Below, in pieces: positions 33,001 through 42,000 of a stretch of DNA of 64,000 nt (positions are counted from its first letter, which is position 1; the number at the start of each line of letters is the position of its first letter). Made by a program: the position numbers. The DNA comes from Pirellulales bacterium (GTDB lineage: Bacteria; Planctomycetota; Planctomycetia; Pirellulales; PALSA-1355), in assembly GCA_963733035.1 (NCBI GenBank), contig CAVTBU010000005.1:2400001-2464000 (forward strand). Reading direction: 5' to 3'.

Positions 33001-36000
33001 GAAAGAGCTTGCGACGACTTTGCCATCTACCTGCTCGCCGATCGCCGGGCCTATGCCGAGACGTTGCTCGCCATGGCCACGCGTATGGCCTCGCGACACA
33101 GGCTCACCCTGGCGATGGCCGTGGTACGGACAACAAAGCTCGAAAGGCGATTGACCGCCATTGAATCGAGCCGCGGCGCAGCGCTGGTCCGCCTAGGCGG
33201 CTGCACGCGAGCCGCACTGACCTTGGGGCTTTCGGCTGTCGTTGCCGCCGGGCTGGTCGCGCGGCTGGTTCATGCCGAGGCTGAGCCGGCGCCGCCGCGC
33301 GGCGAAGCAATTGCGTCCGCTGAGTCGGACTCGGCCCCTCCAATGCAGCCCGAGGAGAAACAGCAACGCGAGAGGGATACTCCGCTTGCTGGAGAGAAAG
33401 AGTCTGCATCGGCGAAGGACTACACGTTCACCGACAACGTCGTAAACAAGCTTTCGCAGCGAAAACGCGACGCGGCAAGGCGTCTCTTCGTCGATCTCCT
33501 TAGGCAGCAGTACGACCAGGCCGTGGAGCTGTTTTCGCCGCAATTGCGCGAGACTCTTACCGGCGAGAGACTCGCGCGGCTCTTCGACAAGCTGGCCAAA
33601 CAATTTGGCAAGCTTCAGCCGCGGGCAGTGCTCTACCTCGGCCGGCTTGGCGACAAGGAACTTCCCGATCTAATGCTCATCTGGGGACAAAAGCATTTCC
33701 TCTCCGTGCGCCTGCTGTTCGATGATCAAGACAAGATCGCTGGCTTGTGGATCGGCAGCAACTCCTTGGCCGCCCAGCCCGATCAACCACCGATCAAGGT
33801 GGGCGAAGATGAACGTGAGTTCACTACCGCCAGCATGATTGCATTTGGCGAACCCATGATGGCGCTAGTCGCCAAAGCCAACCTTTCGCTTATCGTGGAG
33901 TGGTTCGATGCCAGCGGTAAGCAGTTGACATTTGGTGAGCCGCCCGGGGTTTTTGTCTCGTTCTTTCGCGCCATGCACGACGGCGAACCCGCTCAAGCAA
34001 GCGACTGGAACGACACCGTCGACCACATCCGCTGGCGACACATCGCCAACGAATCGCCGCTGGAGAATCGGGCGGAACACCTGGCGCCAGGGACCTACCG
34101 CGCGTTTTGGTCGCGCGTCAGGGACGCGGGTTATCAACTGAGCGACCCGATCACGCTCGACGGCTCGGTGCAAGCCACGGTCGTGAAGACGACGGAGCAG
34201 CCAGGTGCGAAAGTGATCGTTAAGCTCGTCGACGATCAGACTGGCAAGCCCATCCAAGGCGCCGACGTGCGCGTCACCAGCGACGACCCACGAATTCCGT
34301 CCTACCGCTACGGCAGCAGCGAGTTCCCGGAAGCAACGATCACGTTCGACGGCATGCTATCGGGCCGCCATCGCATCGATGCCCATCGACCGGCAAAGCA
34401 GCCCGGCGAGAACGACTACGAACAAGTCGAGACGCCTGTCTATGTCGAGCTTGAGCGCGGAAAAACCTCCGAAGTCACGATCAAGCTGCGTGGCAAGCCC
34501 GCGGCAGATCAAGGTCTCAATGCTCGCTTACGGTGGATCGCCACCGGTAAAGTCATCGATTTGGAGGGACGCCCCATCGCCGGCGCAATCGTGCGGGCGG
34601 CAACGGGCGAGGGCACGCTTCTCGGCGGAGGATCGACGACGACCGACGCCGACGGGCGCTTTCGTCTGCACTTCGGCGAGGGGATTTGGAGCGACAATCC
34701 CGTGAACTTGCAAGTGGCCGTGCTCTCTGCGTCCAAGCCCGGCTACTTCGAAACCAACCTGAACCGGCAGGGCGGCCTCGCCATGGCACGCAGCCAACCC
34801 GCTGAAGACGACCTGCGGCACTGGGGTGGTCAGAAAGTCGTCTTTCTGCCCGGCGAGCCGCGCGAGCTGAACTTCGAGCTGGCCCGGGCGGCGACCATTC
34901 GCGTGGAGTTGGTGGACGCAGCAGGAGAAGACCTGGCCGAGGCGAGCGTTTCGCTATCGGATCAGGCAAAGGAGTGGAACGGCGTGGCGTCGGGTGAAAC
35001 CAGTCGCGGCGGCGATTACACCTTTGAGAATGTGCCGGTCGGCAGAGCGTCGTGGATTGCCGCGACCGTGGACAAAAAGCTGAGTGCCCGGTCGCTGCCG
35101 TTCACCTTGCCGCGCGCGGAAAACTACCGCATGAAATTGAGATTTCGGCAGGACGAAGCCAACGATCTGAATCTGCTGGAGGTGCAATCGATCACCAGCG
35201 CAGCGGGCGAGGAAATCAAGGACAAGGTCCTGGGCGATGACCCCTTGGCGCGGCCGCCCGTCACCGATGCAGACCAGGCCGAAGCTCGCGACCTCCTCAA
35301 GAAACTACTGGACGCCAACTCCCCGTGGTGGTTTGCGCGGCCGCCAGCGGAAATCGCCAGCATTCGCTACGACTTCTGCTTCGCCAGCGGTGATCGCCGC
35401 AACTATGCGTTCGAGCAGGACCAGGAGAAGTTCGATCATTGGGTCGCGCATGGATTGTCGTATTCGTCGGCAACCGCCATGCTCTGCGCGAACCGCAACG
35501 CGGTGGCCTTCCGGCTGGTGGAGATTCAGCCCAACGTGGTTCGGCTGGCCTATACGACGACGACTCGCTGGGGATACTCCGTCGGCAACGGCGTGCAGGG
35601 AACATGGCGCGGCTTTCAATCGGGTGGCGTGCGCGATGGCATCCTCTCGATCGATCCGCGGCGGTGGGTCCCCTTGGAGCATAAGTTTGGCGATATGCGC
35701 GAAGTGTTTTCCGACTACGTCAAGCTGCCCTCCGGCCAGTGGGCGCCGCGGAGCGTGCAAATCATCGAGGGAGATCGCCCGAAGTTCGATTGGAAGTTCG
35801 ATCTCTACGAGCCGGGCGTCTGGCTGTTCTCTTCGAGTCGCGACACGCGGAACCCCGACGCACCGCCGATCGCCCGGCTGGAGAACGTAATGATCAACGG
35901 CGCTCCCGGAAAACTCATCAACTAGTTGACGAGCCGCGCGTTTGGCGGGCTGCGGCGAACTTGTTTGACAGTACCTGTCGACCCTGCTACAGTACCCCGC

Positions 36001-39000: not shown

Positions 39001-42000
39001 AGCCTCGTTGACGCTGTTGAGCCCAACCTGCCGGCCATTCAACTCGGCAACAACTCAGGTGACATGGCCAAGCTAACATTGACCGACAGCGTGACGTTGA
39101 TGGGAAACGAAATCTGGATCGGCGCCCAGGCGAACACGCAAGGCACGATTACCATCAACCAGGGCATGTTGTCGACATCGACGTTTCAACCCGGTAACTC
39201 GCCCGCGCAGATTGTCGTGGGCGCCGCTGGGACAGGAACGCTCTCCGTACTGACGGGCACCGTGCAGGAGATTGGTACGACAATCATCGCCAGAGACGCC
39301 CTGTCGCACGGAACTTTCAGCTTGGATGGCAGCGACTCGCTCTACTATTCACTGGGATCCGGATTGACCGTCGGGCAGGGGGGAGTCGGAACGTTCTCAC
39401 TCACGCAGGATTCAGTCGCCTATGTGGCGGGGAACCTAATGGTGGGAGAGGATGCCGGATCAAATGGCACGATCAACGTCGCAAGCCAATCGACGCTGAC
39501 CTCGGCTTTGGGAAGCTATGTCATGCAATCGGCCACGATCGGCGGGGCGGGAACCGGCGAGCTTGACGTTACGGGCGGGGGCAAAGCCTACCTGCTGGGT
39601 CCCCTGGTCGTGGGCCAGGCACAAGGTTCCGAAGGAACGGTCATCGTCGATGGATCGCAATCGACCCTCGCACCATTTAGCTCCGGTACGCTACCCAAAT
39701 TATCGCTTACCGTGGGTGATGCCGGTGCGGGAACGATGTCGGTACTAAACGGCGCACAAACCTCACTGGGCGGCACGATCACAATCGGTAATAGTGCCGG
39801 CAGCATGGGCCATTTCATCGTCGACGGCGCCGGCTCGCACGTGCAATCGGCACAATTCGGCAGCCAATCGGTCGACAAGATGATCGTGGGAGCGTCTGGC
39901 AACGGAACGCTCTCGGTGACGGGGGGAGGTGTCGTCGACCTCATCAATGCCAACGTTTATGTCGCGCAAAACGCCGGCTCCATGGGAACGATCGAGGTCG
40001 CCTCGGGCTCCCAGTTGATCGCCAACAACTTGGACATCGGCGCCGTGGGAACCGGCCTGGTTTCGATCGGCAACGGTAGTAAGGTCAGAGTCTGGACCGG
40101 GCCCGTGGAGAATCACGCCGGAGGTACGATCGACCTACAAGGCGGAACGCTCCAACAGTACTTTGACAACACGAACGTCGAAGTCCACAACTCCGGCACA
40201 CTCGACAACAACGGTACGGTGATCGGAAACGTCACCAATTTGCCAACAGGAATTGTGTCTGGTTCGGGCACGATCACCGGAACGCTATCCAACCAAGGGG
40301 GCATGCTCGCACCAGGCAACTCACCGGGAACGCTGTCCGCCGGTTCGCTCGATTTCCAATCCGGCACGCTGCAGATTGAAATGAACCGAGCAATGGAAGC
40401 CGCCGGCGGTCCCGCCGGTTGGGACCTGCTGAACATCCAAGGCACGGCGGCACTCGCTGGCCCCCTCCAAATCGAACTCGTTTCGTTGTCGCCAAACGAT
40501 CAGCCCGGAAACGTCTACGATTTCAACCCTTTGCAAGACTATCAATGGCTCTTCCTGAACGCCAGTGGAGGAATCACGGGCTTCGATGCCAGCAGTTTTG
40601 CGATCGACTTATCGCATTTCTCCAATGCCTATTCGGGCCAATTCTTTGTGACGGAAGTCGGTAACGCGCTTTTACTCAACTACAGCGTGCCAGAACCGGC
40701 GACGCTGGTGCTGGCCGGCGTCGGACTGGTGCTGTTCGCAGGGGCGGCCAGGCGCCGCCGACGGTCTTGAACGCAAACCCGCTTCAGGTAAGCGGCTTTA
40801 CTTGGACAACCCAGTGCCAACAAATTACGCCAAGCCCAAATGCAGCCCCGGGCCGGCAGCCGATTGACAGCGCGCCATCGGCTCGGATTCAATCGAGTCA
40901 TGAGCTCTTCGCGAGACCACAATCGGCAAGCCTGGGACAAGCGCGCACGCGCCGGGGCACGCTTCACCAAGCCGGCAGCGGACGAAGAATTTCGCGATCC
41001 ATTGGCCGCAGTCGATCCCTCCGGCTGGCTCGGCAGCAGTATCACGGGCAAGCGCGTGTTGTGCCTGGCGGCCGGCGGCGGCCGGCAGAGCGCGCTGTAT
41101 GCCGCGGCCGGCAGTACGGTGACGGTGGTCGACATCAGCGGCGAAATGCTCGCCATCGATCGCGAAGTGGCAGCCGAGCGCGGCCTGTCGCTGCGAACCG
41201 TGGAAGCTTCGATGGACGATCTCTCGGCGCTCGCGCCGGCGAGCTTCGAGATCGTGATCCATCCGGTGAGCACGTGTTACGTACCTGACGTGCTCAAGGT
41301 CTTTCGCGAAGTGGCGCGGGTGCTGGTTTCCGGCGGCGTGTACGTGAGTCAGCACAAGCAACCGACGAGTTTGCAAACCTCGGTCGAGCCAACCGCACGA
41401 GGATACGAGGTCGCCGAGCCGTATTATCGCCGAGGTCCGCTGCCGCCGGTGGTGGGCAGCTCGCATCGCGAGGCGGGTACGCTCGAATTTTTGCATCGCT
41501 GGGAAGAACTCGTCGGCGGAATATGCCGCGCCGGCTTCGTGATCGAAGACCTCGTCGAACCGGTGCGCGCCGACGAAACCGCAGCCCCGGGAACGTTCGC
41601 GCATCGCAGCCAATACGTAGCCCCCTACGTGCGCATCAAGGCCCGCCGCCGCGGCGACGCGCAAGTGACCGCCGAGCCAGCCAAAGTCTGGTTGCCGTAA
41701 GGGGGCGTCAGCGATCCGGCGAATTCGCTTTCCACGCGAAATCCCAGAGGGAGATCACTCACGACAGGCATTTCCGCGTGCGGATTGTTGCGATCGGGGC
41801 TTGCGACAACTACGATACTGCGCGTGTGCGCACTTCGATTTATCGGCGATTTTCAATAGGTTGGGCAGCTCATGAGAAACATTCTGGCCATGGTAGCAAT
41901 GGCGGCGGGGATTCTACTGGGAGTTTCAGACACGACGAACGCATCCAGTTTAGTGCTTGCGTCACAGCAATTAACCGTGGACAGCGACGGAGACGCCACG

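Follow-up and report, generated by a model that had tools for sequence, protein, structure and literature searches.

How does a bacterium that uses vitamin B12 but appears unable to synthesise corrins obtain it, and why should its cobalamin riboswitch lead into a gene for a pilin-like protein? The question is raised by a 64,000-nucleotide stretch of a Pirellulales genome (hereafter the window), in which the riboswitch is followed on the same strand by a prepilin-type H-X9-DG/DUF1559 gene (g02729) and a gene encoding a DUF4465 B12-binding domain (g02730). The initial annotation described a genome with B12-dependent enzymes, no corrin synthesis and no BtuB or BtuCD adjoining the operon, and the gene inventory agrees: a complete MetH (1313 aa), a B12-binding protein and MeaB are encoded, while CbiC and FecCD/BtuC have no match in the whole genome. 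The one gene with a Plug domain is distant from the operon, split over two frames and neighboured by genes for YfiR, a histidine kinase and a GGDEF protein. FecCD is absent, the one Peripla_BP_2 gene lacks an adjoining transporter, and no inner-membrane B12 transporter was recognised. We propose, with about even confidence, that the operon is a B12-repressed corrinoid acquisition unit in which the pilin-like protein, as part of a pseudopilus, would most probably help B12 to cross the outer membrane.

The riboswitch aptamer (35995..36224, + strand) matches the full RF00174 model (positions 1-189) at 86.9 bits, against a gathering threshold of 31.5 (E 1.1e-20). A second match was not found in the assembly among the 150 of 327 candidates scored (genome 92.28% complete), consistent with its description as the single cobalamin riboswitch of the genome, placed ahead of the DUF1559 and DUF4465 genes. 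A sigma-70-like promoter candidate (35965..35993, + strand; TTGACA, 17 nt, TACAGT, with TG before the second hexamer) ends 2 nt upstream of the aptamer and matches 10 of 12 consensus positions, but is weak evidence alone because the region held two such sites against a chance expectation of 1.4. The leader from aptamer to start codon (36225..36392, + strand; 168 nt) contains no terminator-like site on the + strand, and its fold z-score of 0.91 is no better than that of shuffled sequence.

The first gene, g02729 (36393..37271, + strand; 292 aa from ATG), scores 147.2 bits for SBP_bac_10/DUF1559, 25.9 bits for N_methyl and 29.6 bits for the TIGR04294 H-X9-DG model (cut-off 19). Its AF2 model (pLDDT 90.3) predicts an N-terminal helix (residues 23-74) and a globular head. 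The best 20 VIA matches in a fold search were all type IV pilins or pseudopilins, at weak Z scores of 2.3-4.7, and ComP is among the fold matches; a Foldseek search returned nothing at E <= 0.001. Glutamate at mature position 5 is invariant (66 of 66 sequences). Residue -1 of the prepilin site, Gly in most of the clade, is Ala in g02729, a point against the proposal. Assignment as GspG was rejected because TIGR01710, covering residues 20-73, reaches 37.3 bits where 88.85 are required. The N-terminal motif and helix are common to g02729 and the GspG-K pseudopilins; however, its head is about twice as large and bears the H-X9-DG motif, and its gene lies in a nutrient operon rather than a gsp cluster.

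After a gap of 126 nt follows g02730 (37398..38312, + strand; 304 aa), which encodes a signal peptide, the only DUF4465 (BtuJ-type) domain in the genome (178 bits) and a PEP-CTERM tail (22.2 bits). A tail of this type was detected by regular expression in 67 of 75 DUF4465 homologues. The genus Mucisphaera, which we take to belong to the Planctomycetota (class Phycisphaerae), is relevant to the function of this domain. B12 binding by DUF4465 proteins, including D5EK51 of Coraliomargarita akajimensis (9HMU), is reported in the available part of PMC13398666, in which members of the Planctomycetota-Verrucomicrobiota group were tested biochemically and the protein 'Pan' is Mucisphaera calidilacus A0A518BTS0. 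Given the placement of that genus, planctomycetal B12 binding by DUF4465 has therefore already been published, as a caveat in the initial annotation had suspected. g02730 belongs to the same domain family and matches the solved B12-bound structures 9hmu (the closest, E 8.8e-27), 9fct (1.5e-16) and 9i2l (1.7e-10). ABC transporters, TonB-dependent barrels and plugs, and beta-propellers are named there as DUF4465 neighbours, and the available text has no occurrence of planctomyc, pilin or PEP-CTERM.

The downstream limit of the unit is less clear. g02731 (38617..40770, + strand; putative TTG start) encodes a beta-helix-type T5SS/PEP-CTERM-repeat protein (TIGR04393, 78.2 bits) with a PEP-CTERM tail (27.2 bits), and no terminator-like site was found on the + strand between it and g02730. 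It had been counted as an operon member, yet its conservation after DUF4465 was not found in relatives, and similar PATR/PEP-CTERM proteins occur in only 4 of 60 extra loci (the riboswitch-DUF1559 loci L187, L194, L200 and L229), leaving its membership in this same-strand unit uncertain. The SAM-dependent methyltransferase gene that follows (40840..41700, + strand; Methyltransf_11, 60.7 bits) is a recurrent last gene of these units, with homologues after the binders in 44 retrieved loci; its match to the corrinoid-protein-associated CpaM is weak (32.7 bits, cut-off 180). A small PEP-CTERM protein of 219 aa (41872..42531, + strand; 21.4 bits) has the tail alone in common with the BtuH-like family described below and is possibly unrelated to the unit.

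Across 201 sampled genomes of the order, which are not independent samples, a DUF4465 homologue was found in 72 others. A same-strand riboswitch lies 197-3926 nt upstream in 69 of the 72, the remaining three being cut by contig ends, and in 59 a DUF1559 gene separates the riboswitch from the DUF4465 gene, bearing out both linkages first noted in a smaller set of relatives. At the other loci DUF1559 is just downstream (3/72), partial at a contig edge (3/72) or absent (7/72); four of the latter genomes (G172, G098, G014 and G031) have no DUF1559 gene at the DUF4465 locus, but in G098 and G031 a riboswitch-DUF1559 pair is present at another place in the genome, away from the binder. Another 53 genomes have no DUF4465, and in these the best-scoring match to a profile of the g02729 clade (252-373 bits) is found 37-420 nt downstream of a riboswitch. 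The recurrence of the arrangement is far beyond chance, and it is the riboswitch together with DUF1559 that forms the core of the system. The reading of the operon as a B12 acquisition unit under cobalamin control is supported.

The DUF1559 proteins concerned form a distinct group. In quick tree searches, with support by SH-aLRT alone, all 127 riboswitch-linked proteins and one paralogue from the present genome separate from 51 other paralogues (SH-aLRT 82); left-out members score 340-431 bits against the clade profile and paralogues at most 236. The clade has six specific conserved positions, and its match to the Pfam model is shorter, spanning positions 1-174 and a C-terminal piece. In more than 120 of the 201 genomes a member is the first gene after the riboswitch. 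No other riboswitch-led gene of the order is as conserved, and the presence of the clade is not incidental. In the 53 genomes without DUF4465, different PEP-CTERM proteins come after it, BtuH-like, beta-propeller-like (a weak match) and others; for a PEP-CTERM 'family B', matches were obtained to the BtuH domain in BtuG1 (8blw, E 3.7e-8) and to BtuH2 (7biz, E 0.027), and BtuR is next in seven loci. Judged by such similarity, the partners appear to be B12 binders of several kinds, and along the DUF1559 tree the clade is retained through several switches of partner type.

The clade is also complementary to riboswitch-led BtuB/TonB genes. In f21, a family of the order with 13 genomes, neither DUF4465 nor a clade member at 1e-60 was found, and riboswitches lead TonB-dependent receptors in seven genomes and TonB in eight, together 9 of 13. 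Among 78 named DUF4465 loci, a prepilin-type H-X9-DG gene accompanies DUF4465 outside the order in 43 of 57 from Planctomycetota, Verrucomicrobiota and Lentisphaerota versus none of 19 from other phyla, and a receptor in 1 of 57 versus 10 of 19. Receptor and prepilin gene are not strictly exclusive, since one Lentisphaerales locus has a riboswitch-led TonB-dependent receptor and a prepilin-type gene together. The pairing with DUF4465 holds under a different riboswitch class, as an Armatimonadota locus runs from an AdoCbl-II riboswitch through a prepilin gene and DUF4465 to a BtuH-like gene.

When B12 is scarce, the riboswitch would permit expression of a surface binder, whose DUF4465 jelly-roll would bind B12 and whose PEP-CTERM tail presumably holds it at the cell surface, and of the pilin-like protein. 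The latter would be processed by a prepilin peptidase and join a pseudopilus resembling those of type II secretion or type IV pili and using a secretin; secretins, prepilin peptidases and T2SSE ATPases are encoded in the genome, with no secretin, ATPase or platform gene within the operon. Competence pseudopili take up DNA, and type IV pili carry ligand-binding minor pilins. By analogy, a protein that combines a pilin fold with an N-terminal methylation motif may import a scarce, macromolecule-sized ligand through a secretin, and captured B12 would cross the outer membrane by way of the pilin-like protein, which would occupy the place held in other bacteria by TonB-dependent BtuB with TonB. The analogy differs in that no sequence family is shared, what would be imported is a vitamin of 1.3 kDa, and retraction and fibre formation are hypothetical here. 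The binder's place at the surface, the assembly of a fibre, the direction in which B12 moves and the step across the inner membrane are inferred.

A live rival to import explains the same gene pattern by export or display of the binders: the protein, a minor pseudopilin in a machine resembling type II secretion, would drive the co-encoded PEP-CTERM binders through the outer membrane, and B12 would enter by another route. Type II secretion pseudopili do export folded proteins, the partners are all secreted PEP-CTERM proteins, and the prepilin gene is missing where lipoprotein or T9SS sorting serves the same binders (Por_Secre_tail, Bacteroidales locus; 0 of 19 non-PVC loci); the Lentisphaerales locus with both genes fits as well. 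However, the clade stays constant while the partner family changes repeatedly, so an export adaptor would need to recognise a shared feature, and it would leave unexplained why riboswitch-led BtuB/TonB genes are absent with the clade and present in f21 without it. By crude ORF picking, a PEP-CTERM ORF follows only 3 of the 30 DUF1559 genes of the present genome, so that no general cargo-neighbour rule is visible, and in G098 and G031 the riboswitch-DUF1559 gene is apart from the binder gene. We regard export as possible, though clearly less probable than import.

Less probable again is a membrane-anchored periplasmic receptor, held by its N-terminal helix, whose head would bind B12 and hand it over to an inner-membrane transporter as BtuF does. 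The Pfam name SBP_bac_10, the lone Peripla_BP_2 in a genome without FecCD and the six clade-specific positions, which could mark a ligand site, are in keeping with it. The predicted fold is nonetheless pilin-like rather than that of a periplasmic binding protein, the invariant residue is Glu5, which in pilins serves fibre assembly, and the complementarity is with outer-membrane BtuB/TonB and not with BtuF, which makes this reading unlikely. Pilins often mediate adhesion, and a protein co-regulated for, say, adhesion to B12 producers or surface remodelling under B12 limitation would have no direct role in B12 handling. According to the available parts of PMC10632474 and PMC8567305, no DUF1559 protein has a known function, which leaves room for such a role; it is nevertheless very improbable given the clade's first place behind the riboswitch in so many genomes, its proximity to homologues of three B12-handling protein families and to BtuR, and the recurrence of the pairing in four phyla, with riboswitches of two classes.

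The favoured reading, import by a pseudopilus, can be set beside the btu loci of Bacteroides thetaiotaomicron, where, according to the available parts of PMC10404256, PMC8941943 and PMC13616437, a riboswitch controls BtuB-BtuG alongside BtuH and BtuJ, which are surface lipoproteins. There, as here, a cobalamin riboswitch leads surface B12 binders, BtuJ shares the DUF4465 family with g02730, and relatives of the present unit add a BtuH-like domain and, weakly, beta-propeller-like proteins, in what looks like the same logic of several binders serving one translocator. In contrast, the Pirellulales unit has no BtuB or TonB and no adjacent BtuFCD, its binders bear PEP-CTERM tails instead of lipoprotein signals, and its conserved first gene, for the pilin-like H-X9-DG protein, has no equivalent in the Bacteroides loci.

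DUF1559/SBP_bac_10 proteins are expanded in Planctomycetes, as the available parts of PMC10632474, PMC8567305 and PMC2754498 describe, and the estimate of about 30 copies in the present genome proved accurate (36 matches, ~30 genes). g02729 has the N_methyl plus SBP_bac_10 architecture of this expansion and falls in the separate riboswitch-linked clade. The initial annotation's suggestion of a first function for the family was overstated: the evidence covers this one clade, and none of the 51 other paralogues tested belongs to it. For that clade, the riboswitch-linked position gives a huge protein family of unknown function a first testable job.

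The window contains a cobalamin riboswitch (RF00174, positions 35995–36224, + strand) that spans the whole model (1–189 of 189) and scores 86.9 bits against a gathering threshold of 31.5. In agreement with the initial annotation, which had described it as the only one in the genome, this was the sole RF00174 match in the 6.65 Mb assembly (92.28% complete) among the 150 of 327 candidates that were scored. The riboswitch also heads the same-strand gene set that had been proposed for it, namely g02729 (prepilin methylation motif, DUF1559/SBP_bac_10 domain and H-X9-DG motif; 36393–37271, +), which starts 168 nt downstream of the aptamer, g02730 (DUF4465 with a PEP-CTERM tail; 37398–38312, +) and g02731 (a PEP-CTERM-tailed repeat protein; 38617–40770, +). 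A candidate sigma-70-like promoter site ends 2 nt upstream of the riboswitch, and the preceding gene, encoding a BlaR1/M56-type membrane protein of 1236 aa with carboxypeptidase-regulatory-like domains (32215–35925, +), ends 70 nt upstream of it. No intrinsic terminator was found in the leader downstream of the aptamer, and the leader folded no better than shuffled sequence, with no clear sequestering fold. We conclude that this operon is a B12 acquisition unit, the conserved element of which is a specialised pilin-like protein in the place held elsewhere by BtuB/TonB.

The putative B12 binder of this unit is g02730, which scores 178 bits against DUF4465 (PF14717; cut-off 25) and matches B12-bound structures, most strongly 9hmu (E = 8.8e-27) and more weakly BtuJ1/BtuJ2 (9fct, 1.5e-16; 9i2l, 1.7e-10). 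In contrast to BtuJ1 and BtuJ2, which carry a lipoprotein signal, g02730 has no Cys in its N-terminal signal region and instead bears a PEP-CTERM tail (22.2 bits); tails of this type were recognised by regular expression at the end of 67 of 75 DUF4465 ORFs. Mucisphaera is a genus that we take to be planctomycetal, as had been suspected earlier of the organism behind a DUF4465 protein named 'Pan'. Cobalamin binding has been reported for eight DUF4465 proteins, including this 'Pan' of Mucisphaera calidilacus and D5EK51 of Coraliomargarita, so that the binder half of the system is already known, a planctomycetal protein included; the text of that paper mentions neither pilins nor PEP-CTERM (PMC13398666). 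For g02730 itself, cobalamin binding is predicted from its membership of the DUF4465 family. The domain also occurs inside giant riboswitch-led ORFs, with open frames of 3487 and 2422 aa at two loci (G098:C10, L059; G031:C23, L091). At loci of Rubripirellula, Novipirellula and Stieleria (L289, L301, L306–L308, L310), high summed profile scores (769–841 bits) suggest that several copies of DUF4465 stand in tandem, joined to a BtuH-like domain.

The arrangement of riboswitch, DUF1559 and DUF4465 recurs across the order Pirellulales. A search with g02730 against 201 genomes sampled from the order recovered a DUF4465 homologue in 72 other genomes at E <= 1e-18, leaving out seven further genomes in which PEP-CTERM tails alone were matched (E 2.6e-7 to 5.7e-4). 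RF00174 lies 197–3926 nt upstream of the best DUF4465 match on the same strand in 69 of the 72, and the DUF4465 gene is less than 800 nt from a contig end in the remaining three. A DUF1559 gene, sought by Pfam, by tblastn and then over all frames with a profile of the intervening proteins, occupies the interval between riboswitch and DUF4465 at 59 of the 72 loci, follows DUF4465 directly at three, is partial at a contig edge at three and is absent from seven; in three of the seven genomes concerned, a second DUF4465 locus exists at which riboswitch and DUF1559 are both present (L107–L109).

The riboswitch-linked DUF1559 proteins, including g02729, constitute a distinct clade. Its profile assigns 340–431 bits to linked proteins outside the training set and at most 236 to paralogues from the own genome and two others (G018, G010). 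A quick tree search covered 127 riboswitch-linked proteins and 52 paralogues; a branch with SH-aLRT 82 sets all of the former apart from the remaining paralogues, together with a single own-genome paralogue (C5:907534), upstream of which no riboswitch was detected at E <= 1 and which adjoins the gene for a cadherin-like protein of 1880 aa. Six residues, D159, G161, R167, I216, N220 and D223 (g02729 numbering), are conserved across the clade and seldom seen in paralogues. The clade extends to genomes that lack DUF4465: when its profile was searched against the same 201 genomes and the 128 without DUF4465 were scanned for riboswitches, 114 of these had one, and in 53 the best clade match (252–373 bits) follows a same-strand riboswitch at a distance of 37–420 nt. 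Three more have the riboswitch 2.6–4.7 kb upstream of the best match; among the others, four matches are cut by a contig end and G083 has its sole riboswitch on another contig. The clade gene was confirmed in all 60 riboswitch-DUF1559 loci without DUF4465 that were fetched. A general rule by which DUF1559 genes precede PEP-CTERM genes was rejected, as this holds for 3 of 30 in the own genome. At a locus of Zavarzinella formosa DSM 19928 (L252, 1550–2097), two cobalamin riboswitches (109.7 and 104.5 bits) lie back to back on opposite strands, one leading a DUF1559 gene and the second another gene.

PEP-CTERM proteins of several families lie downstream of the clade gene; they were clustered under strict coverage because DUF4465 shares tails and dockerin-like pieces with other partners. 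The DUF4465 profile matches just the 70 DUF4465 ORFs and no other partner. Family B, found in 46 loci and placed after DUF4465 in 14 of them, aligns with the BtuH-type domain of BtuG1 (8blw_B 391–498; E = 3.7e-8), over the first third of that domain alone, and with BtuH2 (7biz_A) at E = 0.027, these structures being identified as BtuG1 and BtuH2 in their reports (PMC10404256, PMC8941943). For families C and D no convincing solved relative was found, only dockerin-like pieces and weak beta-propeller signals, the latter for family D. The adenosyltransferase gene btuR lies downstream in seven loci. Mapped on the tree, partner type requires at least four changes for DUF4465, which indicates that the clade is kept while the binders are swapped. 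In proteobacterial loci (Aquabacterium, Burkholderiales, Methylobacillus, Pseudomonadota; L242, L254, L263, L264, L266, L292, L295, L299, L302), a family B gene (202–261 bits to the family profile) stands directly upstream of DUF4465, and the pair is often followed by a TonB-dependent receptor. BtuH homologues are described as predominantly from Bacteroidota in a 2026 review (PMC13616437); judging by these proteobacterial sequences, the domain may be much more widespread.

Within the window, neither g02731 nor a PEP-CTERM protein of 219 aa could be accepted as BtuH-like, since hhalign against the family B profile aligns tails alone; the HMMER match of the g02731 C-terminus to profile positions 180–298 (34 bits) is too weak for use. 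Of the 60 fetched riboswitch-DUF1559 loci without DUF4465, 4 encode PATR/PEP-CTERM proteins resembling g02731. In the window a SAM methyltransferase (Methyltransf_11) is encoded at 40840–41700, homologues of which close the unit in 44 loci; it is a recurrent last gene of riboswitch-led units across many families, and its resemblance to the corrinoid-protein-associated CpaM is weak (32.7 bits, cut-off 180). A locus from the window's own genus (L035, genome G016) has tandem riboswitch-led units, the first comprising riboswitch, DUF1559, DUF4465 and a family-B-like ORF, and the second its own riboswitch, a second DUF1559 and a PEP-CTERM protein of 339 aa. Methyltransferase and aroE genes then follow, as they do in the window, where g02731 holds the position of the second unit.

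The own genome needs B12: in line with the initial claim of B12-dependent enzymes without corrin synthesis, it encodes a complete MetH, a B12-binding subunit adjoining MeaB, and in addition a radical SAM protein of the B12 type, and no CbiC was found in it. The claim that BtuB/BtuCD do not adjoin the operon also stands, in that no TonB-dependent receptor lies under the riboswitch within 32215–46038 and no FecCD permease was found genome-wide; the single Peripla_BP_2 gene is isolated. The one TonB-dependent receptor-like (Plug) gene of the genome lies on another contig beside YfiR, kinase and GGDEF genes. It occupies two overlapping frames, with Plug in one and the barrel in the other (contig C3; L003, 8223–10371), the result of a frameshift or else of misassembly.

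Pilin-like proteins and TonB-dependent receptors show complementary distributions. In one family of the order (f21), no clade member (E <= 1e-60) and no DUF4465 were found in the 13 sampled genomes; here riboswitch-led genes include TonB-dependent receptors in seven genomes and TonB in eight, together covering 9 of 13. Riboswitches in this family also lead a class I ribonucleotide reductase (three genomes) and CobU (two). In the latter two genomes, of genus g81 (G108, G135; L330, L331, L318, L319), one riboswitch leads CobU and another an N_methyl prepilin-type gene, the product of which falls outside the clade, with a profile score of 19–24 bits. In a set of 78 named DUF4465 loci drawn from all phyla, with phylum taken from sequence record names, a prepilin-type H-X9-DG gene is present at 43 of the 57 loci from Planctomycetota, Verrucomicrobiota and Lentisphaerota and at none of the 19 from other phyla; the corresponding numbers for TonB-dependent receptors, counted among ORFs of 450 aa or longer (72 of the 97 checked), are 1 and 10. 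A prepilin-type gene is also present at a locus from Armatimonadota and at another that has no title. The 43 prepilin-type genes are divided between the clade (20) and a second lineage (23), the latter located downstream of DUF4465 and a BtuH-like gene (L240, L262, L267, L269, L274, L277, L287, L309 and others). Proteins of this second lineage (~275 aa) have a conserved C-terminal extension past H-X9-DG (LGWF.P.DNS.FDL), and Pfam gives N_methyl alone in most of them. A riboswitch was detected upstream of 15 of 18 scanned DUF4465 loci, the other three being cut at the locus edge. At the Armatimonadota locus L298 (3082–5535), an AdoCbl-II riboswitch (RF01689, 54.2 bits) leads prepilin-type H-X9-DG, DUF4465 and BtuH-like genes, the same gene set under another riboswitch class and in a phylum beyond the three named.

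Several lines of evidence suggest that g02729 is pilin-like. It passes the cut-offs for DUF1559 (PF07596; 147.2 bits against 23.3), prepilin H-X9-DG (TIGR04294; 29.6 against 19) and the prepilin motif (N_methyl, 25.9 against 21.2; TIGR02532, 18.5 against 16.3). Each of 66 clade members has Glu as residue 5 of the mature protein (E25), and at residue −1 of the prepilin site g02729 has Ala where the clade consensus has Gly. A confident AF2 model (pLDDT 90.3), for which 66 sequences of the clade were used, comprises an N-terminal helix of 52 residues (23–74) and a beta-strand head. In a VIA fold search of 48,161 chains the top 20 were all pilins or pseudopilins, though at low Z-scores of 2.3–4.7, and Foldseek returned no match for the model in the PDB at E <= 0.001. 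Assignment as the T2SS major pseudopilin GspG was rejected (TIGR01710, 37.3 bits against 88.85, with residues 20–73 alone aligned).

Of the machinery on which pilins depend, the own genome has six matches to Secretin, three to the prepilin peptidase Peptidase_A24 and 13 to the T2SSE ATPase; none of these lies within the operon. We favour import of B12 through a pseudopilus as the mechanism, giving it about an even chance of being correct. Alternatively, the pilin-like protein might export or display the binders, a less likely but live reading, or it might serve as a membrane-anchored periplasmic receptor, which is less likely again. A broader and more doubtful possibility is that in Planctomycetota, Verrucomicrobiota, Lentisphaerota and part of the Armatimonadota vitamin B12 passes the outer membrane by way of a dedicated pseudopilus and not of a TonB-dependent receptor, with a ligand-specialised H-X9-DG pilin taking B12 from PEP-CTERM-anchored binders and passing it through a secretin.

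DUF1559 ranks with the largest planctomycete protein families that have no known function, and published accounts describe it as a large, functionally uncharacterised family with a prepilin motif (PMC10632474, PMC8567305, PMC2754498). In Planctopirus limnophila, two of the 68 paralogues are reported to be essential (PMC10632474), and Tuwongella immobilis is reported to have 91 proteins with the N_methyl plus SBP_bac_10 architecture (PMC8567305). The literature searched yielded no link of pilins, pseudopilins or DUF1559 to cobalamin. As a riboswitch identifies its own ligand, the clade gives DUF1559 its first ligand-defined context. The Bacteroides scheme of several surface binders (BtuJ, BtuH) is extended to other phyla, with PEP-CTERM as the anchor. 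If the pilin-like protein replaces BtuB, this would explain how B12 reaches bacteria in which TonB-dependent receptors are few or lacking and would constitute a new route for nutrients across the outer membrane. Should import by a dedicated pseudopilus prove true, the DUF1559 paralogues of a planctomycete genome, which number tens to hundreds, could form a set of uptake pilins specific for different ligands, and transport on this principle would differ from that through porins or TonB-dependent transporters.
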